Below are positions 7,707 to 41,507 of a stretch of DNA of 41,507 nt, in pieces (positions within the stretch are counted from its first letter, which is position 1; each line of letters opens with the position of its first letter). A model generated the notes under the pieces. It saw nothing but the letters and a program-made list of their open reading frames with translations, did no database searches and had not been told where the DNA came from. Source of the DNA: a virus (Duplodnaviria; Caudoviricetes); IMG/VR virus record IMGVR_UViG_3300017649_000007, positions 1 through 41,507 of that record; one strand, 5' to 3'. The translations under genes and the position numbers were made by a program.

Positions 7707-9280
7707 GCACCAATGCAACTGGCACGCCGGATAGTGGCGACAAGCCCGCCGAGCGCTCTGCCCTTCAGATGACCTACACCCAGGCCATCAATCGCATCCA
7801 AGAGATCGAAGCTCGCATGACCGAGCTGTCCGAACTCGACAGCCTCACTCCCGAGCTGGATGCGGAGTTCCGCGAACTGCGGGACGAAGCGTTCCTCGTG
7901 GACGAGCACCGCAAGCGTCTTGAACGCGCCGACGATCTGGCGAAGATCAAGAGCGTTCGCGGCCAGGCCGATTCGGCGATTCGCACTCGCGGGATTCGTG
8001 TTGCCCCTGGCACAACCGTGTCGAGCGGCTACGACGACTACGACCGTGACTCCATCCTGGAGCCAGACTCCGTGGAGGACCGTCGATTCCGTGACCCGTG
8101 GAACCTCACCGAGGTTCGTCAGTACGGACGCCCCGCTGGCGAGCTGGGCGGCGAGCTGCGTGCTCGCGCCCTGTCGGCCATCGAGAAGATGCCCGTGGCG
8201 AGCGACCGGATTCGTGCGCGCGCAACGGAGATCATCGAGCAGTTCGACAGCAAGGATGCTCGTCTGTCGCGGCACGTCCTGCTGACCTCGAAGCCCGCGT
8301 ACGTGCGGGCCTGGTCGAAGCTGGCTCTGAACCGGCAGCACACGTTGACCGCCGAAGAGCAGCGCGCCCTTGCGGATGTGGAAGAGTACCGGGCGATGTC
8401 CCTCACGGACTCCGCTGGCGGGTATCTCGTTCCCTTCCAGCTCGATCCGACCCTGATCGTGACCAGCGCCGGTGTCCGCAACGACATCCGGCAGATCGCC
8501 CGTCAGGTGGTCGCCACCGGCGACGTGTGGAACGGCGTGTCGAGTGCCCATGTTTCGTGGTCGTTCGACGCGGAAGGCTCTCAGGTCAGCGATGATTCGC
8601 CGACCTTCGGGCAGCCGTCGATTCCGAACCACATGGCCCGAGGCTTCGTGCCGATCTCCATTGAGGCGTCGATGGATGAAGCCAACGTGGCCCAGGAAGT
8701 CGGTCGCCTGCTCGCGGGCGGCAAGACCGATCTGGAAGGTTCGGTGCTGATAACCGGCGACGGCTCCGGTAAGCCGACCGGCATTGTGACGGCCCTGGCG
8801 GCATCTTCGCCGTCCGTGGTCGTCCCGGCTGCAACTGATGACACCTTCGCCATTGGCGATGTCTACAAGTTGCAGGGCGCACTACCCGCTCGCTATCGGG
8901 CCAACGCATCCTGGCTGGCGAACAACTTGATCTACAACATCGTTCGCGGCTTCGATGACTACGGTGGCGGCTCGTTCTGGGCCGACATGAACGATGACCG
9001 TCCTGCCCGTCTGCTGGGTCGCCCGGCTCTCGAAGCCGAAGCGATGGACGGGACTATCGACACCACTGGCGCGGCGAACAACTACGCCATGATCTTCGGC
9101 GATTTCGAGAACTTCGTGATCACGGATCGCCTGGGCATGGCCGTCGAGTTCCTGCCGCATCTCGTGGGTGCCGATCACCGTCCGACCGGCCAACGTGGTT
9201 GGTTCGCCTACTACCGCATCGGTTCTGACTCCGTCAACGACGGCGCGTTCCGCATGCTGAACGTGGCGAGCGCCAGCTAG
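7703..9280 (+). CDS. Major capsid protein, HK97 fold, with long N-terminal scaffold (delta) domain
   Basis: Coiled-coil N-terminus; RAMSLTDSAGGYLVP, GDGSGKPTGI, LLGRP and FGDF motifs. Confidence 0.93.
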   Translation: MSTNATGTPDSGDKPAERSALQMTYTQAINRIQEIEARMTELSELDSLTPELDAEFRELRDEAFLVDEHRKRLERADDLAKIKSVRGQADSAIRTRGIRVAPGTTVSSGYDDYDRDSILEPDSVEDRRFRDPWNLTEVRQYGRPAGELGGELRARALSAIEKMPVASDRIRARATEIIEQFDSKDARLSRHVLLTSKPAYVRAWSKLALNRQHTLTAEEQRALADVEEYRAMSLTDSAGGYLVPFQLDPTLIVTSAGVRNDIRQIARQVVATGDVWNGVSSAHVSWSFDAEGSQVSDDSPTFGQPSIPNHMARGFVPISIEASMDEANVAQEVGRLLAGGKTDLEGSVLITGDGSGKPTGIVTALAASSPSVVVPAATDDTFAIGDVYKLQGALPARYRANASWLANNLIYNIVRGFDDYGGGSFWADMNDDRPARLLGRPALEAEAMDGTIDTTGAANNYAMIFGDFENFVITDRLGMAVEFLPHLVGADHRPTGQRGWFAYYRIGSDSVNDGAFRMLNVASAS

Positions 9281-9291
9281 TCGGAAAGCTA

Positions 9292-9333
9292 GGGGCGGCA
9301 AGGGGTTCCGTACGCCTTTCCCCTTGCCGCCCC
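9292..9333 (+). terminator. Stem-loop after capsid gene (terminator or mRNA stabiliser)
   Basis: Perfect 14-bp inverted repeat GGGGCGGCAAGGGG/CCCCTTGCCGCCCC; the U-tract is weak. Confidence 0.6.
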
Positions 9334-9360
9334 GCTTAATCCCGTTGGGAGACAAAACAA

Positions 9361-9702
9361 ATGGCAGTGCTACGAGCGAAGACAGCGTTCTCCTACACCG
9401 ACCGCAACGGGGTTTCCCGGCTGGTCAAGGTGGGGGACCTGTTGAACGACAACGATCCCGACGTTGCCAAGCGTCGTCACCTTTTCGTGCCCGTCGAGGA
9501 ACACGTCGAGGTGGTCGAGCGGAGGCGCGTCGGCACACCCCTCATGGAAACCGCTACGGCAGAACCCTCTTCGCGTCGGTCACTGTCGCGGTCGAGAGGG
9601 CGCAAGGGCAGCGAGCCCGCCGAGCCGGTCGCTCCGGTGGTCCAGCCGGTGGTCGAGCCGGTGGCTGAGCCCGTTGCCGAGACCTCCACGGAAACGGAGT
9701 GA
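9361..9702 (+). CDS. Hypothetical head-region protein
   Basis: GGAG RBS; low-complexity EPV-repeat C-terminus. Confidence 0.7.
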   Translation: MAVLRAKTAFSYTDRNGVSRLVKVGDLLNDNDPDVAKRRHLFVPVEEHVEVVERRRVGTPLMETATAEPSSRRSLSRSRGRKGSEPAEPVAPVVQPVVEPVAEPVAETSTETE

Positions 9703-10118
9703 CCGCAATGAAACTCGTCTACAACTCCAGTGTTGCCAAGGTCGCCTTGGCGTATGACACCATCGATTCGGACACGGACACCACTGGTGCAGTGCTCGAC
9801 ACCTACGACGGCGGAAACGCTTTCGCGGAAGTCGATTTCATCGTCACCACCGGCACCGTGACTGACGGCACCTACGAGTTTGCCATCACCGAGTGCGACA
9901 CCGCTAATGGCGACTTCGACCCGGTTCCGGCGTATCGGATTCTGGGCACGGTGCCGACCGTGGGTGCATCCAACGACAATGCTCTGTACTACTTCGCTTG
10001 CCGCCCAACGAAGCGGTACGTGCAGCTCGTCGTCACGTCGGACCAAACGACTGACGGCGGCGCGATGGGTGCCGTGGCGCTGCTGAGCACGGGCAGCGTC
10101 AACCCGCCCGTTCGCTGA
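9699..10118 (+). CDS. Hypothetical virion protein, possibly capsid decoration
   Basis: Thr/Asp-rich beta-type sequence between capsid and adaptor genes; alternative start ATG 9708. Confidence 0.6.
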   Translation: MTAMKLVYNSSVAKVALAYDTIDSDTDTTGAVLDTYDGGNAFAEVDFIVTTGTVTDGTYEFAITECDTANGDFDPVPAYRILGTVPTVGASNDNALYYFACRPTKRYVQLVVTSDQTTDGGAMGAVALLSTGSVNPPVR

Positions 10119-10128
10119 GGGGGATGAC

Positions 10129-10668
10129 ATGCCAGATCTCAACGCATCCGACGTGCAGACGTACACCAAAGGGAGGCTTGCCAGTTCGGACAATCTGACG
10201 ACCGTGCTGCTCAAGGCTGCCCTGGCGGGTGCGCGGTCGGTTTGCGGCTGGCATGTCAACCCTGTCAAGGAGAACCACGTGCTGACACTTGACGGGTCGG
10301 GCAGTGAGCTTCTGCTGCTGCCCACCCTGAAAGTGGTTGAACTAAAAGCCGTTACCGAAGACGGCAAGTCACTCGATCTTGCGGATGTCATGCACTCTGC
10401 CGGTGGGCCGGTTCGGCTGCGCAAAGTCACTGGGCGGTGCTGGACTCCGAAGTACAGCGCAGTCACGGTCACGATGGACCACGGCTACGACGATGAGGCT
10501 GCTGCTGATTGGCGGCTGGCTGTGCTCGACGCGGTCGACCGATTCTCGGAAAGCATTGGGGCAACGGGGCTCAAGCGCTATCGGGTGGATGACGTCGACC
10601 GTGAATGGTTCAACAACCCTGACGCCTTCAACCGTCATCTGATCGCACCCTACAGGTTGATGCCATGA
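10129..10668 (+). CDS. Head-to-tail adaptor
   Basis: AR..CGWHV.P, LDG.G..LL.LPT and VTMDHGY motifs typical of actinophage adaptors. Confidence 0.8.
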   Translation: MPDLNASDVQTYTKGRLASSDNLTTVLLKAALAGARSVCGWHVNPVKENHVLTLDGSGSELLLLPTLKVVELKAVTEDGKSLDLADVMHSAGGPVRLRKVTGRCWTPKYSAVTVTMDHGYDDEAAADWRLAVLDAVDRFSESIGATGLKRYRVDDVDREWFNNPDAFNRHLIAPYRLMP

Positions 10669-11015
10669 CCGCTGGGGGACAGTCGGTCACGTTCGTCTCC
10701 GTGGGTACGGGGGCAACGGACGAGTGGGGCAATCAATTGAAATCGCAGTCCACCACAACGATCACGAACTGCCGTTTCCGGCCCGTGTCTGTGTCCGAGA
10801 CCGTCGACTACACCGACAAGACGACGACCCTCTGGAAGCTCACGAAGATCCGGCCTATCGAGAGCCAGTTGCTCGACGCCAAGCCGAACGATCTTCTCTT
10901 GTGGGACAACAAGACTTTCGAGATCGACGGTGTCCCAAAGGTTTTCACTGACCATACCGGGTCGGTGTATAAGGTCACGGTGTTTGCCAAGCTTCAGCAA
11001 CGGCACGTGGCCTGA
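10665..11015 (+). CDS. Head-to-tail stopper
   Basis: Size, synteny, D.WGN motif and FEIDG.P motif. Confidence 0.75.
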   Translation: MTAGGQSVTFVSVGTGATDEWGNQLKSQSTTTITNCRFRPVSVSETVDYTDKTTTLWKLTKIRPIESQLLDAKPNDLLLWDNKTFEIDGVPKVFTDHTGSVYKVTVFAKLQQRHVA

Positions 11016-11039
11016 TCCTTTGCAAGGAAAGGAAATCCG

Positions 11040-11237
11040 ATGAAGTACGAAGTGCTGCGACCGTGCGTGGTTCGCTCGCCGGATGGCAAGAGCGCCACGC
11101 ACTACCGCAAGATGGGCACCGAGATCGACGCCAACCCGGCTGACGCTCGCCTGCTCGTGGAGAAGGGCTACCTCAAAGAGGTCAAGTCGCAAAGCGCGCC
11201 CGCTGCACCGGCAGAAAAGCCCAAGGACACCAAGTAG
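11040..11237 (+). CDS. Small hypothetical virion-region protein
   Basis: AAGGAAAGGA RBS; A.LLVEKGYL motif. Confidence 0.65.
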   Translation: MKYEVLRPCVVRSPDGKSATHYRKMGTEIDANPADARLLVEKGYLKEVKSQSAPAAPAEKPKDTK

Positions 11238-11243
11238 TTCCGC

Positions 11244-11600
11244 ATGGGCTGGCGTGAAGACTTTGGCATCGAAGACGATTCGGACATCGTCAAAGCGGCC
11301 AAGGACGACATCGAGAACGGGCTGAACCAACAGATGGTCGAAGTGCGCGACTACTGGCGGTCCATCTCGCCCGAAGAGACGGGTGACTACAAGGACCAGT
11401 TCGTGTTCGGCAAGTTCGAGCTGGACGACGGGACGCCCGGTCGCCGTGTCGCCAACATGTCACGTCACGCTCACCTCGTTGAGTATGGGGCTGAGGATCA
11501 AGAGCCGCACTCGCCACGAGCCAAGACCGCCAATCACTTTGGCAACGAAGGGCGGTATCTGGCCGGTGGCAGCGGCCCCGCACCGGAGGCTTCGCTCTGA
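11244..11600 (+). CDS. HK97 gp10-like neck/tail completion protein
   Basis: SISP..TG.Y and HAHLVEYG motifs. Confidence 0.7.
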   Translation: MGWREDFGIEDDSDIVKAAKDDIENGLNQQMVEVRDYWRSISPEETGDYKDQFVFGKFELDDGTPGRRVANMSRHAHLVEYGAEDQEPHSPRAKTANHFGNEGRYLAGGSGPAPEASL

Positions 11601-12052
11601 TGGTCGATCTTCACCCGTATGTCGCACCAGATGGCCTTGAGGCGCTGAGGGTTTGGATAACCGGGTCGGCGTCGCTCACGGGAATCCCCGTGCGAGCCAA
11701 TCGTCGTCCGGGCGACACGCTGCCATACATCATGCTCACCCGTCCCAGTACCGTGTCGGATCTGCTTACGGAGACTGGGGTTTACCGGGTGCATGCGTTC
11801 CATGAAGAGGGGAGCGGGCAGTCCGCGATGAAGCGGTCGTATGACCTTGCAACCCTTGTGAATCGACGCATCGCCGTTCTCAACCCGAGATACGGCGGCG
11901 GTCAGGTGCCGGTGACCGTCAACGGCGTGGATCTCTACGCGGATTCTGTTGACTTCAACGAGGGTCCGACGCGGGAGAAGTACACCGAAGACGGCTCGAT
12001 TGAGCAGTACATCACCGACATCACCATCGCGTGGCGACTGCTCGCCGCGTAA
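11600..12052 (+). CDS. Tail terminator
   Basis: Immediately precedes the major tail gene; R.PGD.LPYI motif. Confidence 0.7.
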   Translation: MVDLHPYVAPDGLEALRVWITGSASLTGIPVRANRRPGDTLPYIMLTRPSTVSDLLTETGVYRVHAFHEEGSGQSAMKRSYDLATLVNRRIAVLNPRYGGGQVPVTVNGVDLYADSVDFNEGPTREKYTEDGSIEQYITDITIAWRLLAA

Positions 12053-12119
12053 AGCACACACAGTCAAAGTTGTTATGGCCCAGTCAGTATGGGCGATCCC
12101 TCACTGAAAGGTTAAAAAA

Positions 12120-13145
12120 ATGGCTCTGCCTTCAACTGGCGGGACATACGACGAACTGTTCCGCCCTCAGCTCAACCCGCTGGCGATTCGGAAGGGTATC
12201 GTCACCGACGCCTTTGTCCGTGATTACCACCAGTCCGCTACCAGCCTTGCCGATCCCGCTGTGGGCCTTGGCGATGACGGCTACTTCAGCCCCTACGCTC
12301 AGGATGGCTACCCGCGTGATGATCTTCTGATCACCAGCGACTCAGCGAACCTCGGCTTCTGGCATCTCGGTCACCTGGGCGTGGACGGCATCAATTTCGA
12401 TCCGCAGATGGACAGCGAAGAGGTGCCGACCGCCCAAACTCTGCGGCCCGCACGTGAAGATGTGATCCGCGAGGGCGAGATGTTCACCATTGTCTGCCTG
12501 GAGCAGACCCCCCTGGTTCGCTACCTGGTGAACGAGCTGCCGCTGGTCGACGTGCCCGATCTGGGGCAGGCGCATCTGACGATCCCGAAGCCGATGGAGG
12601 CCGGAATTGTTGAGCGCCAGTTCATCCTGTGGGGCTTCGACGGCGGTCATTTCTTCGCTCGCACCATCCCAAGGTGCTCGAAGGTGAAGGTCCGCGAATT
12701 CGCTTGGAAGCGTGAGGGTAAGGAGGGCACCGGCGTCACGCTGGACTTCAAGGTGTTGCCTTGCCCGTACGTCGGCAAGCCGGTGCTGGAGCACTACGAG
12801 GGTCCTGCCCACCGTGCTCTCGGCGGCTACGCGACCTTCCCGCCGCCCGCCCCGGTGGCGACGTCTGTCACGCCCGAGAAGGCAACCATCACCTTCGCGG
12901 AAGCCGTTGGGCCTGCTGACCCGTTCACCTACAAGGTCTACAAGATCAACTCCAGCACGGGGGAGCGCACCTTGGCGACCATCGACACCGGCTATCCGAC
13001 GGTGGCGGGTGGCACGGTCACGATCCGGGTCACCGGCATCTCTGACGGTGTGGATTTCACCTTCGAGGTTGAGGCCACGGGTACCAACGGCCTGACCACG
13101 GTCTCGTTGGAGTCCAACGAGATCACCGGCGACGACGGCAACTGA
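12120..13145 (+). CDS. Major tail protein with C-terminal Fn3/Ig-like domain
   Basis: GAAAGG RBS; synteny; C-terminal PAPVATS..ATITF...YKVY...FTFEVEA..NG pattern. Confidence 0.85.
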   Translation: MALPSTGGTYDELFRPQLNPLAIRKGIVTDAFVRDYHQSATSLADPAVGLGDDGYFSPYAQDGYPRDDLLITSDSANLGFWHLGHLGVDGINFDPQMDSEEVPTAQTLRPAREDVIREGEMFTIVCLEQTPLVRYLVNELPLVDVPDLGQAHLTIPKPMEAGIVERQFILWGFDGGHFFARTIPRCSKVKVREFAWKREGKEGTGVTLDFKVLPCPYVGKPVLEHYEGPAHRALGGYATFPPPAPVATSVTPEKATITFAEAVGPADPFTYKVYKINSSTGERTLATIDTGYPTVAGGTVTIRVTGISDGVDFTFEVEATGTNGLTTVSLESNEITGDDGN

Positions 13146-13160
13146 GTTCGCCCCCAAGAC

Positions 13161-13202
13161 GGCCCGTCAGGGTGGTTTGACTGTGTGCCACCCTGGCGGG
13201 TC
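13161..13202 (+). promoter_or_regulatory. Hairpin between major tail and tail chaperone genes
   Basis: CCCGTCAGGGTGG (13163-13175) pairs with CCACCCTGGCGGG (13188-13200); the loop is TTTGACTGTGTG. Confidence 0.65.
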
Positions 13203-13249
13203 CCAAAACACAGTCCACACAGTCACTTTCAAAGAACAGGACACAGTCA

Positions 13250-13690
13250 ATGGCAGCCATCGACAAAAAGCGGGCACTCTCCATCCAAGAGGCGATGGAG
13301 CAGACCGCTGACTTCTTCGGCTTCGATCTGTGCGAGCGGATCGACGTGGGCGGTGAGATCTTCGAGATTTACTTCCGCGACCTGCTGGACCGCGACACGA
13401 ACGCTCGCGTCGAAGCCGTCTATACGGAGTACGCCAAGTGCGACCGTGAAGAGATCACGCTCAGCGACGGCTCGACAGTGCCAGGGCCATACAAAGATCC
13501 GCGCACAAAGGACGGCAAAGAGTTCGACCTCGAATGGCGTCTGGCCGTCGCGCTGTGGGGTGAGGAAAAGGCAGAGCGTTTCGTCAAGGCCGGTGGGCCT
13601 CCCGGTCTGATCCTCATGGTGTGGTCCAAGCAGCGGACCCAGATCAACGAACGGATGAAGCGGGACCCCAAAAGTTTTAGAGGCGATTGA
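13250..13690 (+). CDS. Tail assembly chaperone (G)
   Basis: Lies between major tail and tape measure genes; ends near a CCC AAA A slip site. Confidence 0.85.
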   Translation: MAAIDKKRALSIQEAMEQTADFFGFDLCERIDVGGEIFEIYFRDLLDRDTNARVEAVYTEYAKCDREEITLSDGSTVPGPYKDPRTKDGKEFDLEWRLAVALWGEEKAERFVKAGGPPGLILMVWSKQRTQINERMKRDPKSFRGD

Positions 13691-32790: not shown

Positions 32791-33033
32791 ATGAAGTTGT
32801 CACCGGATAACCTTGCGCGGCTGCGCATGTGGGCCTACGGCGTCTCAGTTGCCGTGGTCGGCCTGCTGATCGGGTATGAACGGATCGCCCCTGACAAGGC
32901 CCCGCTCTGGCTCGCCCTGATCAGCGCCGTGTTCCTGATGACGACGGGAACCACTGCGGCATACAACGTCTACCATCAGCGCAAGGCTGGCATGTTCGAC
33001 GGTGAGCCGCCCAACGAAAGCGGTCTGCCGTGA
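32791..33033 (+). CDS. Holin
   Basis: Two TM helices and an R.WAYGV motif; follows the lysins. Confidence 0.8.
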   Translation: MKLSPDNLARLRMWAYGVSVAVVGLLIGYERIAPDKAPLWLALISAVFLMTTGTTAAYNVYHQRKAGMFDGEPPNESGLP

Positions 33034-33377
33034 GCCCGCTCGAAGTGATCGGCCTGGCGCTTGGTTCGGGTGGCGTCGGGTCGATCCTCACGGCGGCGAT
33101 CCAGATGCGGCTGAACCACAGCGCGGTTCAGGTCGACCAGTTCAACGCGATAGTCGATGCGCAGAACAAGCGGATCGATGAGCTGCACAGACAGATTGGT
33201 GAGCTGAAGGCGAACCTGCACGGCGAGATGCGCGAGCACAACGAGACCAAGCGGCGCTATCGGATCACCTTGCGGTACATCAGAGATCTTCGGGACTGGC
33301 TCAACTCCAGCGGGGTTGCCCATCTGGCGAACACTGCGGTGCCAGGCATTCCGAGCGAGGTACAGGATGACCTATGA
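33030..33377 (+). CDS. Membrane-anchored coiled-coil protein of the lysis cassette
   Basis: N-terminal hydrophobic helix followed by a heptad pattern. Confidence 0.7.
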   Translation: MSPLEVIGLALGSGGVGSILTAAIQMRLNHSAVQVDQFNAIVDAQNKRIDELHRQIGELKANLHGEMREHNETKRRYRITLRYIRDLRDWLNSSGVAHLANTAVPGIPSEVQDDL

Positions 33378-33739
33378 AGCCAGCGGATGTGTTCTGGGTG
33401 AGCGTGCCGGTCGTGGCGATTGCCCACAACGTCTGGGCGGCACGGACGGGTCGTGAGCAACTGTCGCAGGCGATGGATCGCTATCGAGCTGCCAGCCCTG
33501 TGGCCGAGCTGGCCGTGATGGCTACTGCGGCGCATCTGTGTCGTCGCCTGCCAGCGTTTCTCGACCCGTGGGCATGGTTGTACGGGATGACGACGAAAGT
33601 CAGCCACAGCGGGCGTGGGGCGCTGGGAATCGTGCTCCTAGCCGCGCTGGGCGGGCTGGGTGCCAGTGTGTGGCTGGCACGCCAGCTTGAAGACACCTCA
33701 ATCGATCTTGGTCCAAGGGAGGCAGTTCCAACTGACTAG
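33374..33739 (+). CDS. Membrane protein
   Basis: Hydrophobic segments; EQLS.A.DRY...AAHL...DP motif; ATGA coupling. Confidence 0.65.
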   Translation: MKPADVFWVSVPVVAIAHNVWAARTGREQLSQAMDRYRAASPVAELAVMATAAHLCRRLPAFLDPWAWLYGMTTKVSHSGRGALGIVLLAALGGLGASVWLARQLEDTSIDLGPREAVPTD

Positions 33740-34087
33740 ATACTCACCCTCGTGCAGGGCGACTACGGCACTCTCGCCGTAGTCGGCCCTGCCTGAGTCG
33801 ACCAGGGTCTCAGCAAGATCGGAGATCGACTCGGAGTAGGGGACGCCATCGTGGATCTGCCACGTGCAAAAGCGTCCCCGCATAAGAGTGGAACCCTGTG
33901 TCTCCCAAAGGCCCTCACTCTCGGCGTCTACGTGATAGTAGACGCCATTTTTTGTGTCTATAGTCGGGTTCGCTTGCGCCACAACGGGAACGGCCAGCGC
34001 AGTCGCAGCCGCTGTGACACCGGCAACAGCCAGGCGATGCGGATGCATCACCTGAAATGCTTTCAGTATCTCGTTCCGTACGCTCAT
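33698..34087 (-). CDS. Putative secreted protein (start ATG 34087 or 34048)
   Basis: Signal peptide RLAVAGVTAAATALAVPVVAQA; G.W.T.G...C.W...C.PW pattern resembling small actinobacterial secreted proteins. Confidence 0.65.
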   Translation of the reverse strand: MSVRNEILKAFQVMHPHRLAVAGVTAAATALAVPVVAQANPTIDTKNGVYYHVDAESEGLWETQGSTLMRGRFCTWQIHDGVPYSESISDLAETLVDSGRADYGESAVVALHEGEYLVSWNCLPWTKID

Positions 34088-34253
34088 GTGATGCAGGCTA
34101 CACCTGTTTCCGCAGCTCAGCCAGTTGACCGGGATCACGCGGGAATCTGCGAACGCAGGTTTCCCAGTTCTGTAGCAAATGTCGGCAAGCTTCTGACGTG
34201 CAAGGTGCGAGCCAGAGCAAATGCTGAAAAGGCGTGCATGTCCCCCACACTTT

Positions 34254-34262
34254 TGATATTCT
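34254..34262 (+). promoter_or_regulatory. Candidate extended -10 promoter driving the leader and cassette array
   Basis: TGATATTCT fits TGnTAnnnT; a stable hairpin begins 6-8 nt downstream, where a start site would fall. Confidence 0.45.
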
Positions 34263-34267
34263 GTGAT

Positions 34268-34606
34268 GTTCGGTTCAGCGATGAGCCGACGGGCGACCAG
34301 CCGCTCCCACGAGCGAGAACCCGCCCCCAGCACTTTGACAACTACACAGAGACGAAAGCAGAGGGTGAGAGTATCGCGCCCGCAATGCGATTCACGCCGA
34401 TGAGGCTGTAGGTGGGTGTTCATCTGAGGCTCACGCCACCGGGATCGCAAGCGCGAGAGTGTAACCCGCTGTAGTAGTTGAGAATGTGTCTCCTTTCCAA
34501 TCTTTCTCCAATTGCCCCCCAAAGGGCAGGGTTGCCAACGGGTTCCGATCCGTTGGCTTCCCCGTGTTTTGGGAGTCAAAGCACCACTTCAAGATTGGAG
34601 ATCACA
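34268..34606 (+). ncRNA. Candidate long structured leader or small RNA
   Basis: GCGA-tetraloop hairpin 34270-34289; CGGG..CGCTC/GAGCG..CCCG domain; long-range pairing 34339-34349 with 34469-34480; hairpins 34514-34528, 34529-34562 (UCCG loop) and 34564-34584; ends in AAGATTGGAGA. Confidence 0.55.
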
Positions 34607-34846
34607 ATGGCAGCAATTGTCAGCAAGCGAATCCGCGCGGGCCTCTACGAGGTCACGACCGACACGGGTCGTACGTTCACCGTCGAGCAGATCCGCACCG
34701 ACACACCCGGCTACGGCGTCGAGCGGCGCTGGTGGGTCAACCCGTCCGACGACGGACCCCACCCCGTGTTCGACCCGTTCGCCACCAAGGGTGATGCACT
34801 CGATGCCATTACGTTGATGTTCAGCTCTGACAAAAGCTGGATGTGA
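34607..34846 (+). CDS. Hypothetical protein (cassette 1)
   Basis: ATG follows AAGATTGGAGA; 79 aa. Confidence 0.75.
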   Translation: MAAIVSKRIRAGLYEVTTDTGRTFTVEQIRTDTPGYGVERRWWVNPSDDGPHPVFDPFATKGDALDAITLMFSSDKSWM

Positions 34847-34851
34847 CGTTC

Positions 34852-34931
34852 TGAGTGCGACTCAGCCACACAGACTTCCGAGCCTGTGTGTGCTGCTGGT
34901 GTACTCAGCACCACCACAACAAGATTGGAGA
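34852..34931 (+). repeat. Structured intergenic element A1
   Basis: TGAGTG..CAGCCACACAG/CTGTGTGTGCTG..GGTG-TACTCAG-CACC..CAACAAGATTGGAGA; 34848-34931 is identical to 36286-36369. Confidence 0.95.
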
Positions 34932-34936
34932 GAACA

Positions 34937-35212
34937 ATGAAGGTTTGCGCACACGAGAACCTGGGGCCGTTCCAGAACGTCCACTTTCGCGCCGACTCGA
35001 TCAAGCAAGCGGTCGAACGGTTCCGGGAGGATCTGGAAGGCGTCTACGGCACGCTGGAAGGCATCACCGAGCGCACCGGGGAGGATCATGCCCCGGCGCT
35101 GGGTGTGTACCCGCAATGCCCAGATTGCGACTCCCAGATGAACTTCCACGACTACCCACTGGGTCTGTACCGGGTGGGGCCGCGTGGAGGCATACAGCGC
35201 ATGTTCGGATGA
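34937..35212 (+). CDS. Hypothetical protein (cassette 2)
   Basis: ATG after element RBS; its stop is the first codon of element B1; CPDC motif. Confidence 0.75.
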   Translation: MKVCAHENLGPFQNVHFRADSIKQAVERFREDLEGVYGTLEGITERTGEDHAPALGVYPQCPDCDSQMNFHDYPLGLYRVGPRGGIQRMFG

Positions 35213-35295
35213 ATCAACGGCAGGCACACAGTCTTTCCGGGGCCTGTGTGTCTGTAGATGGATTCAACCATCAACCCTCACAACAAGATTGGAGA
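35210..35295 (+). repeat. Structured intergenic element B1
   Basis: TGAATC..GCAGGCACACAG/CTGTGTGTCTGT..GATGG-ATTCAA-CCATC..CAACAAGATTGGAGA. Confidence 0.93.
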
Positions 35296-35300
35296 CGACA

Positions 35301-35591
35301 ATGTCTGACTCGAAGAATCCCTACATCCTCCGTGCCGACGAGGTGAAGCCGGGTGAGATCGTGGTCGACAAGCACGGGAGCCTTTGGGTTCTCGATGAAT
35401 TGGGCGAGCGCCCGCAGTGGCGCTACATCGTCCCCGAGGATTCGACCCGCGAACCGGGTTACTCGTGGGACGGGTTCGACGCCCTGCCAGAGGCTTACGA
35501 GCCGTACACAGTGCTCGATGAGGGCGCGTGCGCCGTCATCGGCAAGTGGCTCGTAGCCGAGGCTCGTCGCCGCAAGGTTTACGTTGTCTGA
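35301..35591 (+). CDS. Hypothetical protein (cassette 3)
   Basis: ATG after element RBS; its stop begins element B2. Confidence 0.75.
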   Translation: MSDSKNPYILRADEVKPGEIVVDKHGSLWVLDELGERPQWRYIVPEDSTREPGYSWDGFDALPEAYEPYTVLDEGACAVIGKWLVAEARRRKVYVV

Positions 35592-35674
35592 ATCAACGGC
35601 AGGCACACAGTTCTTTCGGGGCCTGTGTGTCTGTAGATGGATTCAGCCATCAACCCACACAACGAGATTGGAGA
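35589..35674 (+). repeat. Structured intergenic element B2
   Basis: Near-copy of B1; tail reads CAACGAGATTGGAGA. Confidence 0.93.
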
Positions 35675-35679
35675 CAAAC

Positions 35680-35961
35680 ATGTACGTTGAGACCCGCACC
35701 GACGCATCCGAGGTTTTGGAAACCGTTCTGCGCGAACTGATTCACATGATCATCCGTTTGCGTAACACGGTCCACACCAAGCGGAACATCAGCTCCTACG
35801 TCACCAATCCGCAACTGCGGCAGATGGCGAACGAGCTGCGCGGAGCCTACGTGCTGGCTTGCCGGGTGGCCGGAGATCCCGACCGCATCCCGCTCGAGGT
35901 TCATGAACAGTACGGCGAAGCCGTGCGAGCGGCCCAAGAGTTGGTTGGCAAGCTCGCTTGA
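35680..35961 (+). CDS. Hypothetical helical protein (cassette 4)
   Basis: ATG after element RBS; its stop begins element A2. Confidence 0.75.
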   Translation: MYVETRTDASEVLETVLRELIHMIIRLRNTVHTKRNISSYVTNPQLRQMANELRGAYVLACRVAGDPDRIPLEVHEQYGEAVRAAQELVGKLA

Positions 35962-36041
35962 GTGTGACTCAGCCACACAGACTCCCGAGAGCCTGTGTGT
36001 GCTGCTGGTGTACTCAAGCACCACCGCAACAAGATTGGAGA
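35959..36041 (+). repeat. Structured intergenic element A2
   Basis: A-family copy with +2 and +1 nt insertions in the two loop regions. Confidence 0.95.
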
Positions 36042-36046
36042 CGACA

Positions 36047-36292
36047 ATGGCTAAAGCAGATCGCCGCGTCAGCGTGACCGACCTCAAGACCTGCAAGCGT
36101 TGTGGCGTGGGCAGTCTCTCTTGGGAGACCTCGCGCCGCAACGGCAAGCCCTATCTGTGCATTGTTCGACGCACACGGGAAGGCTTGTACGCCATGCCCT
36201 ATCAGCCTCACAAGTGCCATCCCGACGACGTTGCCCGCATGGACGCTGCGCGCGCCCAGGACGAAGCCAACGGGATTCACTTCGAGTTCTGA
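36047..36292 (+). CDS. Small putative Zn-binding protein (cassette 5)
   Basis: CKRC...H.C motif; its stop begins element A3. Confidence 0.75.
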   Translation: MAKADRRVSVTDLKTCKRCGVGSLSWETSRRNGKPYLCIVRRTREGLYAMPYQPHKCHPDDVARMDAARAQDEANGIHFEF

Positions 36293-36369
36293 GTGCGACT
36301 CAGCCACACAGACTTCCGAGCCTGTGTGTGCTGCTGGTGTACTCAGCACCACCACAACAAGATTGGAGA
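36290..36369 (+). repeat. Structured intergenic element A3
   Basis: Identical to A1. Confidence 0.95.
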
Positions 36370-36374
36370 CGACG

Positions 36375-36890
36375 ATGACCACCTACTATGTCCCCGCCGA
36401 TCACACCGCCACCGAGTGGCGAGAGATGGCGAAGGATTGCTACCGCCGCGAGCAGGAATCGTTCGAGCGGAGCGACACAGATGGTTTCCTGTCCCAGTGG
36501 GCCGCAAACCAATTCGCTAAGATGTACGAGCGGATGGCAGAGCTGGCCGCAAACGGGGGCCGTGCGAACCTGCATTGGCTCTACGAGCGGGACAACGAGA
36601 CCGGCGAGTGGGTGCCCGTCGAGAACTGGCGCTGGGTTGAAACGCGTTACGGCATGAGCGTTCTCGTGGTTCGTGAAAGCCGCGAGAACGTGTTTTTCAA
36701 CCCGTCCGAGGCTCGCAAGGCTTCGACGCGTCAGCGCAACGACGAGCGCAAAGGCTTCCGCTGGGGCACAGTGGAAACCGAGGTCGTCTGCCGCTTCGGC
36801 GGCGGCGCGTACAACATGATCGTCACCGAGCGGAAGCGCAACGCTCCGCTGACGGTCGTTTCAACCGCTCATTACAGCGATTGGGACTGA
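36375..36890 (+). CDS. Hypothetical protein (cassette 6)
   Basis: ATG after element RBS; 171 aa; its stop begins element A4. Confidence 0.8.
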   Translation: MTTYYVPADHTATEWREMAKDCYRREQESFERSDTDGFLSQWAANQFAKMYERMAELAANGGRANLHWLYERDNETGEWVPVENWRWVETRYGMSVLVVRESRENVFFNPSEARKASTRQRNDERKGFRWGTVETEVVCRFGGGAYNMIVTERKRNAPLTVVSTAHYSDWD

Positions 36891-36964
36891 GTGTGACTCA
36901 GCCACACAGGCTTTCGAGCCTGTGTGTGCTGCTGGTGTACTCAGCACCGCAACAAGATTGGAGA
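36888..36964 (+). repeat. Structured intergenic element A4
   Basis: Perfect CACACAGGCT-TTCG-AGCCTGTGTG stem. Confidence 0.95.
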
Positions 36965-36969
36965 CGACA

Positions 36970-37140
36970 ATGACCAAGATCACGACCGTTGCTGCCCGCT
37001 CGATCCGCGTGGGCACCGTGTTCGCCGATGGCGCTACCGTCATGGAGCGCCACACGGCAGAGGGCCTGCTCAAGTTCGTCTGTGATGACGGGCGCGAGAT
37101 GACCTATCGCTCCAGCGACCGTGTGAAAGTCACGTACTGA
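36970..37140 (+). CDS. Small hypothetical protein (cassette 7)
   Basis: 56 aa filling exactly the space between two elements. Confidence 0.75.
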   Translation: MTKITTVAARSIRVGTVFADGATVMERHTAEGLLKFVCDDGREMTYRSSDRVKVTY

Positions 37141-37214
37141 GTGTGACTCAGCCACACAGACTTCCGAGCCTGTGTGTGCTGCTGGTGTACTCAGCACCGC
37201 AACAAGATTGGAGA
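37138..37214 (+). repeat. Structured intergenic element A5
   Basis: A-family copy that starts at the upstream stop codon. Confidence 0.95.
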
Positions 37215-37220
37215 CGACAA

Positions 37221-37508
37221 ATGATCAAGTTCGTTCACATCAAGGGCGACGACGCCTACCGCGCCATCGGTGCCCAGCACATTTACTGGGCGCAGAGGGA
37301 TGGGAAGCGTTGGCAGGTAAGCGTTCATAACCGGGTCGACTTCCGTGAGCTGACGCTCACAGCGCCGGGACAAGCGCTCGACACTGAGTGGTTCGACCGT
37401 CTGAGTGAGTGCAAAACCTATGCGCAGCACTACGAGGCCAACGTTGACCACGAGAGCCGTCGCTACCTGAACCGCTCAACGCGAGCCGTGCTCGCCACGA
37501 TGGAATGA
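37221..37508 (+). CDS. Hypothetical protein (cassette 8)
   Basis: ATG after element RBS. Confidence 0.75.
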   Translation: MIKFVHIKGDDAYRAIGAQHIYWAQRDGKRWQVSVHNRVDFRELTLTAPGQALDTEWFDRLSECKTYAQHYEANVDHESRRYLNRSTRAVLATME

Positions 37509-37517
37509 AGGCACCTC

Positions 37518-37597
37518 TGAGTGTGACTCAGCCACACAGACTTCCGAGCCTGTGTGTGCTGCTGGTGTACTCAGCACCGCCACAACAAGATTGGAGA
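37518..37597 (+). repeat. Structured intergenic element A6
   Basis: A-family copy. Confidence 0.95.
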
Positions 37598-37602
37598 CAA
37601 CA

Positions 37603-37833
37603 GTGAAGGTTACCGAGATTCGAAGGCTCGCAATGCAGTCCACACGCTATGGCTGGTACGACCACGGTTCAACCGTCGCCGCCACCTGCCCACTGTGCCG
37701 CAAACACGTCGTGACTCAGTACAGCATGTGGGCAACCGCCCCTAACGGTAAGCGCCTCAGCAAGATTCAACAGGCGCGCAATGGGGTGGCCGACCATCTC
37801 GCCTCCGAGTGTGTCGAAACTGTCAACGCCTAA
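37603..37833 (+). CDS. Small putative Zn-finger protein (cassette 9)
   Basis: GTG after element RBS; CPLC...H...C motif; its TAA begins element C1. Confidence 0.75.
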   Translation: MKVTEIRRLAMQSTRYGWYDHGSTVAATCPLCRKHVVTQYSMWATAPNGKRLSKIQQARNGVADHLASECVETVNA

Positions 37834-37906
37834 GCCGGTAGGAGGCGCAGCTACTCGCGTGGGTAGTTGCGTCTCTGGTCTGCTTAGACCGCAACAAGAT
37901 TGGAGA
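37831..37906 (+). repeat. Structured intergenic element C1
   Basis: TAAGC..GGAGGCGCAGCTACTC/GGGTAGTTGCGTCTCT GGTC-TGCTTA-GACC GCAACAAGATTGGAGA. Confidence 0.92.
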
Positions 37907-37911
37907 ACACA

Positions 37912-38244
37912 ATGAACACCAGCTATGTTCGTCAGCGTACCGGGGCTCCCGAGGCAGTTGCACAGGGCCGCACGCAGATCACCTACAACGGTCGCACCCG
38001 AACGGCACGTACAGCCGATGGGGTGGAAATCGTTGAGGGCCTGCGGGTCTACACCAACGACCTGGAGCGCGGCGTGATCCGTCTCGACCGCGCCGAGTGG
38101 GAGTGGTACGGATCAGAGGGCAAGTACCATCTGTGGTTCGAGGTCGAGGTCGATCACAACTACAAGGGCGAGCCTGTGAACGGGGAGCGCGTGCTCCAGT
38201 CTGACGACCGGGTTGCCACACGGTTCGAGGGGGTACCGGCATGA
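37912..38244 (+). CDS. Hypothetical protein (cassette 10a)
   Basis: ATG after element RBS. Confidence 0.75.
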   Translation: MNTSYVRQRTGAPEAVAQGRTQITYNGRTRTARTADGVEIVEGLRVYTNDLERGVIRLDRAEWEWYGSEGKYHLWFEVEVDHNYKGEPVNGERVLQSDDRVATRFEGVPA

Positions 38245-38447
38245 GCAACTTCAAGGCAACGGAAGTCGTTGCACTGCATATGTATCCGCACGGTGTGGGC
38301 TCGTTCGCCCACTTCGATGTCGTCGCCGTGACAAGCAACGGCAAAGAGATTTTCCAAGGGTACGCAGTGAGCTACGACGTGGTGAAGGCACGGCAAAAGC
38401 AAGCCTTCCCATACGCTTCCGTGGAGATCATCGAACCCGCGCTCTGA
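38241..38447 (+). CDS. Hypothetical protein (cassette 10b)
   Basis: ATGA coupling and GAGGGG RBS; its stop begins element C2. Confidence 0.7.
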   Translation: MSNFKATEVVALHMYPHGVGSFAHFDVVAVTSNGKEIFQGYAVSYDVVKARQKQAFPYASVEIIEPAL

Positions 38448-38522
38448 GTGGGTAGGAGGCGCAGCTGTCCAGTGTGGGCAGTTGCGTCTCTGGTTCACTC
38501 AGAACCACAACAAGATTGGAGA
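38445..38522 (+). repeat. Structured intergenic element C2
   Basis: TGAGTG, then a 17-bp stem, then GGTT-CACTCAG-AACC and the tail. Confidence 0.93.
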
Positions 38523-38529
38523 CAAGAGA

Positions 38530-38913
38530 ATGGCAACAGTAAAGGTGTACCTGAATGTCAGCCGGGATAGCTTCTTCGGCTTCTACAACGACTTCGGGAA
38601 GCCAGTCCTAGTCCCTGCCATCACTTTTGAGCTGGACGATGAGCTCGCTTCCGACCTGCAATGCGGTGCGCCGTATGCAGCCTTGGAGCGGGTGTTCGAG
38701 CAATTGAACATCGGCGGGCATGACGGCGGGCCAGAGGGTAAGCCGTGGACCGTCGAGTACCGACAGAACGGCTACCGTAGCCTATCGGTGGGTGACGTTG
38801 TCGTGATCGGGGAACTTGCGTACGCCGTGGAAAGCTCTGGCTGGCGCTACATCCCGACCGACGATCTGACGGCGGCGCTGCAACGCGGCGTTGAGCAGGG
38901 GGTGGGCAAATGA
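38530..38913 (+). CDS. YodL-like domain protein (cassette 11a)
   Basis: LERVFEQLN...RSLSVGDVVV...AY.V.S.GW matches the YodL-like motif as recalled. Confidence 0.65.
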   Translation: MATVKVYLNVSRDSFFGFYNDFGKPVLVPAITFELDDELASDLQCGAPYAALERVFEQLNIGGHDGGPEGKPWTVEYRQNGYRSLSVGDVVVIGELAYAVESSGWRYIPTDDLTAALQRGVEQGVGK

Positions 38914-39230
38914 TCACGCTCACATACTGTTCCGAGTGCGGGGCAGACTTGAGCAACGGGTACGCGCATGCCCGACCGTGCTGCTATGAGCAGATGCGGA
39001 TCGTGCAGCCTAACAACGACTGGCGCGGCCTTCGGGTGTGGCCGAAAGAGGGCTACACCAAATACAAAGGGCCGCGTGTTGATCGGGCAGGCGAGCCCGT
39101 GCCGAGCGGCACCGTACTTGGGTGCAACGGCATGGGCAGCGCGTACATCAAGTGGGACAATGGCTCTGTGTCATTGCTCCCGGTCAACGAGATCGAGACG
39201 TACGGGCAACGCGTCCACGTCGAGCTCTGA
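38910..39230 (+). CDS. Hypothetical protein (cassette 11b)
   Basis: ATGA coupling; CSEC motif and SH3-like G.V.....IKWDNG; its stop begins element C3. Confidence 0.7.
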   Translation: MITLTYCSECGADLSNGYAHARPCCYEQMRIVQPNNDWRGLRVWPKEGYTKYKGPRVDRAGEPVPSGTVLGCNGMGSAYIKWDNGSVSLLPVNEIETYGQRVHVEL

Positions 39231-39307
39231 GTGGGTAGGAGACGTAGCTGCCAACATGTTTGGCAGTTGCGTCTCTGGTTCACTCAGAACCGCAACAAGA
39301 TTGGAGA
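39228..39307 (+). repeat. Structured intergenic element C3
   Basis: Ends resemble C2; upper stem resembles C4-C6. Confidence 0.93.
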
Positions 39308-39312
39308 GAACA

Positions 39313-40254
39313 ATGACAACCACCATCGTCAAGGATCGTCGTCGCAGCACTACGCGCCGTTCGGCCAAGCCTCGTCGTGATGTCACGTCCAGCGACTTGC
39401 CGCTACGTGATGACGGGAAGGTCGACCTGGTCAAGGTTCTGGAGTTCGCACTCACAGCACCCGGCCATCTGTCGAAGTGCTACAACAGATTCCATCGTTA
39501 TTCGCTGCTCAACATCATCATGGTGCTGATGCAGACCGGCAAGATGGAACCGATGGCGACGTTCAATCGCTGGAAGTCGCTGGGACGAAACGTCACAAAA
39601 GGCAGCAAGGCGCTGTGGGTCAACCACCCGCGCTTCGCTCCCGAGCGTGACTCTGACGGCCTCCCAGTGGTCGGCAAAGATGGCAAGGTCGAGATGAAGG
39701 TTGTCGGGTTCTACCCGAAAGCCACTGTGTTCCAACTGCATCAGACAGAGGGGCCGGATCTCAAAATGCCTGAACTGCCAGAGTGGGACCGCGAGCAAGC
39801 CGCCAAGGTGCTTGAGCTGAACGAAGTTCCGTTCGAGTACCACGACGGCAACGCCCAGGGCTACAGCACAGGCCGCGACTACGCGATCAACCCTGTGGCT
39901 GAGTACCCGATCAAGACCCTGTTCCACGAGTGGGGTCACATCTTGTGCGGTCACACAACCGGCGACGACAACGCTCCGATGCATCGTGGCGTCCGCGAGT
40001 TCCAAGCTGAGGCAGTCGCTTTGCTCGTCTGCAAGGAACTCGATGTCAAAGAGTACGACCCAGCCGCCTGCCGTGGGTACATCCAGAACTGGCTGCAAGG
40101 CCAGAGCGCCGAGTACCTGGACGACGACGGCAACCTGGCCGTGACGGATGCTGTTGTGCGGCAGATCTTCGCCGCCGCCGACAAGATCCTCACAGCCGGG
40201 CGGAAGTCGCACTACGACAAGATGGAGGCCGACCGTGATAACGCGCAACGTTAA
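39313..40254 (+). CDS. ardC: ArdC-like antirestriction protein (ssDNA-binding domain plus zincin metallopeptidase)
   Basis: YSLLN..ATFNRWKSLGRNVTKGSKA N-domain; HEWGH zincin motif; REFQAE; YIQNWL. Confidence 0.8.
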   Translation: MTTTIVKDRRRSTTRRSAKPRRDVTSSDLPLRDDGKVDLVKVLEFALTAPGHLSKCYNRFHRYSLLNIIMVLMQTGKMEPMATFNRWKSLGRNVTKGSKALWVNHPRFAPERDSDGLPVVGKDGKVEMKVVGFYPKATVFQLHQTEGPDLKMPELPEWDREQAAKVLELNEVPFEYHDGNAQGYSTGRDYAINPVAEYPIKTLFHEWGHILCGHTTGDDNAPMHRGVREFQAEAVALLVCKELDVKEYDPAACRGYIQNWLQGQSAEYLDDDGNLAVTDAVVRQIFAAADKILTAGRKSHYDKMEADRDNAQR

Positions 40255-40381
40255 CGGCAAGTGGATCTGCCACTGCGGCAACGATGCCCGTAACGACGGC
40301 TCAGAGTATGACTGGGTGTGCGAACAGTGGCCGTTCTGCGAACAGGAACGGCCAGAGCTGCAAGCACCCTGGTTGGACTGA
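40235..40381 (+). CDS. Small Cys-rich protein (cassette 12b)
   Basis: GGAGG before GTG 40235; CHC...C.....C pattern; its stop begins element C4. Confidence 0.6.
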   Translation: MITRNVNGKWICHCGNDARNDGSEYDWVCEQWPFCEQERPELQAPWLD

Positions 40382-40457
40382 GTAGGTAGGAGGCGCTGCT
40401 GCCAATATGATTGGCAGTAGCGTCTCTGGTCTACTTAGACCACAACAAGATTGGAGG
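40379..40457 (+). repeat. Structured intergenic element C4
   Basis: TGAGTAG..GCGCTGCTGCCAAT/ATTGGCAGTAGCGT..GGTC-TACTTA-GACC and the tail. Confidence 0.93.
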
Positions 40458-40465
40458 CAAACAAA

Positions 40466-40627
40466 ATGGATGTTCAAGCGACCTACGACGAGCTTGCCGA
40501 TCTCACCAACCAAGCCCTATCTGGCTGTGAGGTCGACGCCGTCCGCATGGCCGAACTCTTTGAGTCGCTTGACTGCTGGCTCAAGGCGCGCGGTTATCTG
40601 CCGAAGTCATGGGCAGAGGGCCGGTGA
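40466..40627 (+). CDS. Small hypothetical protein (cassette 13a; absent from the ORF track)
   Basis: ATG after element RBS; translates to MDVQATYDELADLTNQALSGCEVDAVRMAELFESLDCWLKARGYLPKSWAEGR (53 aa). Confidence 0.7.
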   Translation: MDVQATYDELADLTNQALSGCEVDAVRMAELFESLDCWLKARGYLPKSWAEGR

Positions 40628-40632
40628 TCACA

Positions 40633-40941
40633 ATGGCTACCAAAGTGATTGCCAAAGTGCCCACGTACAGCAGGCAGTACCGCGAAGCCAGCCTCGAAGA
40701 GCTGCGCACCAGAGACGATCTGGTGTTTAGCGACATCGAAGAGGACACGGCAGCCGACACGGTCACGGTCTACTACACAACCAAGATTCGTCAGTGGTGC
40801 GGCGCACTGCGCAAGGTCGGGATCGACCCAGAGATACTTGCCTGGGTCCCGAACCACGGCAGGGGTGAAACGCGGCTCGAACTGTTGGAGTCAGGCAAGT
40901 GGACACTCGTGGATGTGATCAACGATGAACTCAACGGCTAG
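40633..40941 (+). CDS. Hypothetical protein (cassette 13b)
   Basis: Follows 13a directly (alternative start GTG 40624); ends just before element C5. Confidence 0.7.
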   Translation: MATKVIAKVPTYSRQYREASLEELRTRDDLVFSDIEEDTAADTVTVYYTTKIRQWCGALRKVGIDPEILAWVPNHGRGETRLELLESGKWTLVDVINDELNG

Positions 40942-40943
40942 GT

Positions 40944-41023
40944 TGAGTAGATAGGAGACGCTGCTGCCAAACATGATTGGCAGTAGCGTCTCTGGTCTAC
41001 TTAGACCGCAACAAGATTGGAGA
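40944..41023 (+). repeat. Structured intergenic element C5
   Basis: 40941-41023 is identical to 41425-41507 (83 bp). Confidence 0.95.
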
Positions 41024-41028
41024 CAACA

Positions 41029-41421
41029 ATGTGCAAGATCATAGGGGCCGACCCATACGTCACACCTGACGACCGGGATCGGGAACTGTTGGCGCAACGT
41101 GCAACCCGTCGAGCCGAGGTCAACGCTCCACGGTCGGGTGACTACGTCGTTTTCACAGACGGCGTGAAGCGCCGGATCAGCTCCCTGTGGGACGGCAATG
41201 TGCAAACGTCGGACGGCGGATCGTGGTACCTGCTGACGAGCGGTGACGCCTCGTTCTCCGGGTCGCTACATCCGCCCGTGCGACGAGAATTCCTGACCGA
41301 TTCGAGAGAGACAGAGCCAGCGTCGTTTTGGTTCTTCCATCACGATTTGGCGCAGGCGCACAACGCCGTCCACGTCGAGCTGCGCGTCCGTGTCTGGACC
41401 GCAAGCACAACGGCACCCTAG
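41029..41421 (+). CDS. Hypothetical protein, DUF4121-like (cassette 14)
   Basis: PRSGDYV...SFSGS...FWFFHHD..AHNAV.V...VRVW resembles the DUF4121 pattern as recalled. Confidence 0.5.
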   Translation: MCKIIGADPYVTPDDRDRELLAQRATRRAEVNAPRSGDYVVFTDGVKRRISSLWDGNVQTSDGGSWYLLTSGDASFSGSLHPPVRREFLTDSRETEPASFWFFHHDLAQAHNAVHVELRVRVWTASTTAP

Positions 41422-41427
41422 CTGGGT

Positions 41428-41507
41428 TGAGTAGATAGGAGACGCTGCTGCCAAACATGATTGGCAGTAGCGTCTCTGGTCTACTTAGACCGCAACAAGA
41501 TTGGAGA
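41428..41507 (+). repeat. Structured intergenic element C6 (window ends at its tail)
   Basis: Identical to C5. Confidence 0.95.

Follow-up and report, generated by a model that had tools for sequence, protein, structure and literature searches.

In the 41,507-nucleotide stretch of virus DNA analysed here (the window), positions 34485-34512, upstream of an array of small genes, are complementary to the ribosome-binding site (RBS) tail shared by those genes, and this complementarity is real. This arrangement recurs in other actinobacterial phages, each with complementary letters of its own, and the stretch is therefore likely to belong to an RNA switch that lowers the whole row of genes. Our preferred reading, held tentatively and with slightly less than even confidence, is a multi-target antisense leader RNA of the c4 kind, which would mask the first RBS in cis and the others in trans once cut free. 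The original prediction of a master switch acting on 15 RBS tails is partly upheld, by the complementarity and by covariation where tails are distinctive; a predicted cis pairing to the first tail (P about 0.9) could alone drive that covariation. It had missed the upstream leader RNA, a boxA-like motif and the resemblance of the elements between the genes to processing sites.

The window, a linear virus record with a completeness of about 50%, contains genes for terminase, portal, capsid, tail and lysis, among them a lysin B, with a ParB-like gene and a GNAT-domain gene 5' of the terminase (51-1950). The relatives of its tail proteins are mycobacteriophages in every case; this and the gene content point to an uncultured phage with a host of mycobacterial type. 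No close relatives of the window were found; the tail 15-mer matched 123 stretches of viral contigs, the 80 listed being single matches throughout, and no match was obtained when viral contigs were searched for lysin B and ArdC. About 870 non-coding bases follow the lysis genes and are succeeded by the small-gene array, which reaches the contig end with 15 starts and 14 long hairpins between genes. From their position and content, the array genes are probably early genes; the single Pfam match within the array is an ArdC-like gene. The leader region comprises the following features:

33923..33946, + strand: terminator-like hairpin (consensus match only) ending the structural and lysis region upstream of the leader
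34234..34262, + strand: possible promoter, read by eye (-35-like 34234-39, 17-nt spacer, extended -10 TGnTATTCT)
34270..34512, + strand: predicted leader non-coding RNA of about 240 nt, with a structured core and a free 3' tail (from the fold; ends putative)
34334..34349, + strand: rRNA-leader-like (boxA-like) motif, which also supplies the 5' arm of the core-closing stem
34474..34482, + strand: 3' arm of the closing stem, immediately 5' of the anti-tail, pairing with the 34340 region in the fold
34485..34512, + strand: anti-tail, composed of half-site a (34485-93), site b (34494-504) and site c (34505-12)
34514..34584, + strand: three hairpins between the anti-tail and the first RBS (z -2.88), a cloverleaf if site b pairs in cis
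34589..34606, + strand: first RBS tail, including the predicted cis partner of site b (34591-34601; pair probabilities 0.69-0.93)
34607..34846, + strand: first array gene, 79 aa, phrog_2287, with relatives in Cuke, Fowlmouth, Aminay and cluster E

The tail AAGATTGGAGA stands 5' of 15 array genes, and GATTGGAG has 15 copies on the + strand, all within 34593-41506, and none on the - strand. These repeats have a single orientation (15/15 on +) and lie a few nucleotides 5' of the start codon in small genes separated by long gaps; 14 of the 15 precede an ORF and the last is cut by the contig end. The tail keeps its sequence in three unrelated types of hairpin and had been described as common to all array elements, which holds for its 15 copies except that two of them differ by one base. 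The letters of 34485-34512 are as first given. Of the three antisense copies proposed there, site b (11 nt with one G-U) and site c (an exact 8-mer) stand, while site a is a half-site only (GGAGA plus CACA or GACA), at -8 to -11 kcal/mol versus about -13 for site b. The proposed overlap with the 16S anti-Shine-Dalgarno (anti-SD) sequence was also recovered, as CTCCTTTC lies within the actinobacterial 16S end GGATCACCTCCTTTCT, an end present in 28 of the 34 long bacterial loci.

Both TCTCCAAT and CCAATCTT have one + strand copy each, inside 34485-34512, and TCTCCAATCTT at no more than one mismatch gives 17 matches where 0.36 are expected, namely the 15 tails, site b and a stray tail-like copy at 33815. 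The pair formed by sites b and c occurs once in the window and in none of 100 shuffles. The longest Watson-Crick run against seven downstream tails has a mean of 8.9 nt, compared with 5.6 in shuffled leaders (0/60), and the mean duplex with the tails reaches -15.9 kcal/mol for the anti-tail versus -9.7 for the 16S anti-SD. RNA-RNA interaction prediction separated the array starts (n=14, -15.6) from 28 other starts (-10.2), apart from three non-array starts that pair with the anti-tail as strongly (-14.9 to -16.2). Duplex energy alone does not single out 34485-34512: in an energy-only scan of 10,370 overlapping 28-nt segments against 8 of the 15 tails, those of the anti-tail came 10th, 11th and 13th (-15.4 to -15.2; all segments had a mean of -6.8 and an sd of 2.0), outranked by an arm of a type-B element and by two stretches of coding sequence. 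In three runs from related strains, one base is missing from the T run between sites b and c, and no substitutions fall in 34485-34512 among the related-strain variants listed. A conserved uORF, with an ATG at 34484 in frame with gene 1, was considered and rejected because Kumao, Rey and clusters AC/R have no such start before the anti-tail.

Transcription of the leader would start near 34270; a consensus promoter scan found no promoter at 34234..34262. The leader fold leaves the 3' tail unpaired (z -1.05), with a mean unpaired probability of 0.76 for the anti-tail in the truncated RNA. When the first RBS is included in the fold, site b pairs in cis with the first tail (P 0.69-0.93) and sites a and c remain mostly free, and the three hairpins at 34514..34584 form a candidate cut site that would release the leader. 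The motif at 34334..34349 matches, at 12 of 16 bases, one found 105-370 nt 5' of 16S in all 34 bacterial loci with at least 400 nt downstream (out of 120 fetched), which we take to be boxA. A soil metatranscriptome contains one 226-nt RNA contig that is exactly 34280-34505, with a depth of 15.7 compared with about 3 for the other three RNA pieces. This is a weak hint, because it comes from one study, as contigs without strand or ends, and because two DNA runs also break at 34504; the RNA cover data leave out 37600-41507 and the late genes (control), as well as small-share sequencing runs. Six leader-core substitutions occur in related strains, of which three preserve the predicted pairing, two lie at unpaired positions and one disrupts a pair. 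Searches of the leader by blastn returned chance matches only, and Rfam at E<=1 over 33000-41507 returned two sub-threshold miRNA hairpin matches and no C4. A 12-nt word is identical between window 34396-34407 and the Papyrus core (L135 near 12137), which is borderline relative to chance.

The 14 elements of the array, and its one annotated gene, are distributed as follows:

34841, 35956, 36287, 36885, 37135 and 37503, + strand: six type A long-hairpin elements, each followed by a tail and a small gene
35207 and 35586, + strand: two type C long-hairpin elements, each followed by a tail and a small gene
34841..37581, + strand: block of the eight type A and C elements, 23-29 base pairs each
37828, 38442, 39225, 40376, 40936 and 41416 (37828..41507), + strand: six type-B long-hairpin elements with tails, 24-30 base pairs
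39313..40254, + strand: ArdC-like anti-restriction gene (PF08401, E 3.7e-8; phrog_7245)

RNase III substrates are characterized by a long helix (>20 bp) with an internal loop, and this form was found in all 14 elements (23-30 pairs). Types B and C (8 of the 14) favour the + strand and have 4-6 G-U pairs, whereas type A folds equally on both strands; in type B, the + strand is more stable by 10-18 kcal/mol and the five elements folded gave z -4 to -9. The window elements have no Rfam ribozyme match and do not qualify as U-tract terminators. T7 early mRNA is cut by RNase III, with long hairpins containing internal loops before the early-transcript genes, and the window likewise has such hairpins before its genes; we know of no antisense leader in T7. 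In other phages, the same slot holds different structures. In L328, an IMG/VR contig, Rfam detects two pistol and six hammerhead ribozymes, the only such matches among the 21 loci besides the window and the only family matches over leaders and elements; each of the eight lies 5' of a shared RBS tail in a phage gene array (8192-13293). The AC/R elements are tRNA-like by their T-loop words and stand 5' of most array genes (L132 7650-16000; L135 13100-19400), although ARAGORN called no tRNA or tmRNA on L132. Since three different structures share the slot, one of them self-cleaving, these observations suggest that the elements between genes are RNA cut sites, and by analogy those of the window may be cut as well. 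Hammerhead-like words in the window and in AC/R cores were rejected, as the required stems could not be closed by eye and Rfam was silent. In the type-B hairpins (37828-41491), the 3' arm can pair with the tail and the 5' arm resembles it, so that these elements may switch between an open fold and an RBS-masked fold. Many annotated AC/R array starts are an ATG inside the tail itself.

The layout recurs in 18 other loci, picked by hand, from Kumao, clusters AC, R and M, and IMG/VR contigs. A gene common to the window and MrMiyagi led to the same layout in the latter, whose leader is conserved across clusters AC and R. This AC/R non-coding RNA (for example L132 6450-7025 and L135 11960-12268) is 300-550 nt long, has no Rfam match and is called as hypothetical ORFs in some records. 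Its anti-tail contains 18 nt invariant in five genomes, while the flanks are 73% identical by column. Anchored on the T-loop, 64 of 66 AC/R elements contain GG(A/G)TGG, the word on which the final alignment was made; its T weakens the SD, yet pairs with the anti-tail, and other flanking changes in these tails are mostly A/G, which the facing U tolerates. Kumao, Rey and Bongo each combine a boxA-like motif and a folded RNA with a pyrimidine tract and tails of their own, and the same layout with its own pyrimidine tract was found in Kumao, cluster M and nine IMG/VR loci. A boxA-like motif scan of viral contigs gave 93 matches, 86 of them distinct; 14 of these loci have at least five copies of a purine-rich 9-mer downstream, and by eye an anti-tail is present in 10 of the 14 and absent from L319 and the L270 group (L270 with relatives L291 and L343, judged on L270). 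The distance from motif to anti-tail is 110-335 nt and core length differs between loci; the leader cores are not detectably homologous, and therefore what is shared is the layout, not the sequence. A Kumao leader search retrieved Kumao itself and one chance match, a window-type motif scan gave 118 mostly unrelated matches, and a covariance model from four AC/R sequences, a weak model, matched only L258 among 18 sources. A gene-start listing of Argie, Typha, Cjw1, Nodigi and LeBron yielded no clear case.

The proposed covariation between tail and anti-tail was scored on 19 loci with the layout, window included, and four without, all loci and tail patterns being hand-picked. It is recovered where tails are distinctive: for the window tails their own anti-tail ranks first of 18, and for the AC/R tails the AC/R anti-tails rank first and second. 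In contrast, the GA-rich classes do not discriminate (own anti-tail at ranks 1-12 of 18), because GA-rich tails cross-pair. In a shuffle test (60 shuffles), 11 of the 19 loci reach <=3, two of these 11 at a different site, and Rey and L321 are at chance; cluster M has an anti-tail with weak statistics.

According to our preferred reading of a c4-like leader, one early promoter near 34270 would produce a transcript of leader and array, in which site b would remain paired in cis with the first tail until the intervening hairpins are cut. The hairpin 5' of every gene would be cut, by an RNase III-like activity in the window and by RNase P/Z-like activity or self-cleavage in the relatives, yielding single-gene mRNAs and a free, stable leader. 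Present in excess, this leader would pair in trans with the tails through two to three registers and outcompete the 16S anti-SD. By the build-up of the leader and its masking in trans, the array proteins would be made as an early pulse and then turned down.

Another explanation, unlikely in our view although by no means negligible, is a lock acting only in cis: before processing of the leader, the anti-tail would hold the 5' UTR shut across the RBS of the first gene, and its match to the other tails would reflect homogenisation by cassette shuffling. For 15 of the 19 loci, the anti-tail is predicted to pair in cis with the first RBS (mean P >=0.37; the probabilities for site b of the window are given above), and this could alone drive the covariation. 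There is also no overall preference for downstream tails, which pair better than the first by at least 1 kcal/mol in seven of the 19 loci, worse in four and about equally in eight. Contigs of related strains diverge from the window at element junctions within 34900-37000 and run on into other genes, which suggests cassette shuffling at the repeats and differing gene orders in these strains. Against a lock of this kind, sites a and c are left without explanation because both stay free in the cis fold, the flanks of the AC/R tails vary while the core matching the anti-tail is kept, and Fowlmouth has a tail-less gene between the leader and the matching RBS. Moreover, the first genes are unrelated between phages, so that a gene-specific lock would have no clear purpose.

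The boxA-like motif raises another, rather doubtful possibility, that host Nus factors hold the leader on RNA polymerase and masking proceeds hand over hand. The closing stem would set the anti-tail at the RNA exit, each new tail being captured in turn; ribosomes would be kept off the polymerase, the transcript re-tethered after each cut and finished single-gene mRNAs released. The motif that precedes 16S in all 34 bacterial loci also heads these phage regions, in many loci the bases preceding the anti-tail are predicted to pair close to the boxA-like end, and tandem registers suit strand exchange. NusG contacts S10/NusE in ribosome coupling as well as in antitermination (PMC6614797). Tethering gives the best account of the co-occurrence of motif, anti-tail, tandem registers and cut sites. 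However, AC/R leaders have an anti-tail without a recognisable motif, the window copy has 4 mismatches in 16 and is predicted to be paired (closer copies occur in Kumao, Rey and the scanned viral-contig loci), and many motif-bearing loci have no anti-tail (L270 group, L283, L319, L333, L344). It is a speculative idea that actinobacterial phages run their early arrays like a mini rRNA operon, with a boxA-tethered leader riding on RNA polymerase, whose anti-SD-like tail would seize every emerging RBS and hand it on. If true, the polymerase would carry an antisense RNA by which transcription is uncoupled from translation, while ribozymes, tRNA mimics or RNase III hairpins release single-gene mRNAs.

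It is very improbable that the leader mimics the 16S 3' end, as a phage-specific anti-SD favouring array mRNAs or as a general mask of host RBSs. The shared CTCCTTTC, a GGATCAC 5' of the Rey tract and the rRNA-leader-like motif upstream would agree with it, but GGATCAC is not kept in Bongo, L313 and L321, core lengths differ (as does the spacing from the motif), the AC/R model finds none of the other leaders, Rfam gives no rRNA match, and the anti-tail follows phage-specific non-SD letters. Least probable of all, and barely to be entertained, are inverted DNA binding sites for a protein, which the original prediction had offered as its alternative, or chance: repeats of cluster K (SAS/ESAS) have been proposed as possible protein sites (PMC3203893) and the anti-tail is not the top segment by energy, but G-U pairs and bulges are meaningful only as RNA pairing, the position after an RNA stem is fixed in 19 loci, sites b and c do not recur together in the shuffles, the array proteins have no DNA-binding match (with about half of the genome missing from the record), and the leader fold, the G-U-rich + strand hairpins (8 of 14), the L328 ribozymes and the RNA contig fit a role as RNA.

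For a c4-like leader, several known systems offer partial parallels. The c4 RNA of P1/P7 is a precedent for a phage antisense RNA covering an RBS (PMC5320573). It resembles the window leader in deriving from a longer transcript, in having two pairing sites with partial RBS cover and in a specificity set by few letters. It is described there as a three-stem RNA of about 77 nt that pairs via loops a' and b', whereas the window leader is predicted to be about 240 nt with a linear 3' tail and, unlike c4, has 15 or more potential targets. Thus, the leader has the downstream-RBS complementarity of C4 RNAs without the Rfam match or the loop targeting in a fold of about 77 nt; it works in a c4-like way if our reading holds, yet is no C4 member. 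The cluster A Pleft RNA is likewise a non-coding early-operon leader, abundant, stable and processed, and accompanied by more than 90% lower downstream levels (PMC5712189). In L5, the Pleft leader is followed by a tRNA-like element (by eye); unlike the window, L5 lacks both a boxA-like match and an array of repeated tails, and no anti-tail was seen in the cluster-A-like L183 and L344. The B11/6C sRNA also represses multiple targets through purine-rich RBSs, with which B11 pairs without the help of any known chaperone (PMC10470900); unlike the window leader, B11/6C is host-encoded, with C-rich loops and scattered targets that are not co-transcribed with it. The bacterial rrn leader with its Nus antitermination is a further parallel, as a near copy of the actinobacterial rrn-leader motif stands in the phages 5' of a folded RNA that ends in a pyrimidine tract resembling the 16S anti-SD. 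In contrast, the phage leaders have protein genes downstream and the closing 3' arm lies 5' and not 3' of the pyrimidine tract, and those of AC/R have no motif.

The closest parallels to the tails themselves are cluster K SAS and cluster M CR3/CR4, described in PMC3203893 and PMC7953290 as phage-specific, over-conserved RBS repeats with small genes and long gaps; the cluster M tail considered here would correspond to CR3/CR4. The window repeats share with SAS the single orientation before small genes, but the tail differs from the 13-nt SAS consensus. The RNA or protein partner of such repeats was left open in print in 2011 (PMC3203893), and the leaders supply a candidate RNA partner for those of clusters AC, R, M and Kumao. 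These phages are grown on M. smegmatis mc2155, and compensatory mutants can therefore test the candidate. Cluster K itself appears to have none: no such RNA was found in the two phages checked (Aminay whole; Anaya 36/61 kb), Aminay, with 23 SAS, having no free anti-SAS and Anaya one reverse site without the leader layout. In the literature consulted, an anti-tail leader is nowhere described for these phages, although the primary description of cluster M might cover repeats and leader. If true, one RNA that addresses 15 or more interchangeable cassettes via a common RBS code would be a novel means of timing the genes for host takeover, and might be used to switch sets of genes in mycobacteria.

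Some further observations concern the surroundings of the anti-tail. The stray tail-like copy (33815-33825) and a second copy of site a (33897-33905) both lie in the non-coding stretch 5' of the late terminator; they are possibly a relic, or a late-transcript 3' end touching the same system. Dozens of GC-rich phage contigs (L266-L358) have the actinobacterial rrn-leader motif at the head of non-coding regions, including cluster-A-like ends and tRNA arrays. In Cuke, an internal leader segment can pair with the anti-tail. In L307, L323 and L335, the 3' half of the anti-tail and the bases that follow it can form a small hairpin, much as the end of 16S can in its precursor, and the 5' half may then serve as a toehold.
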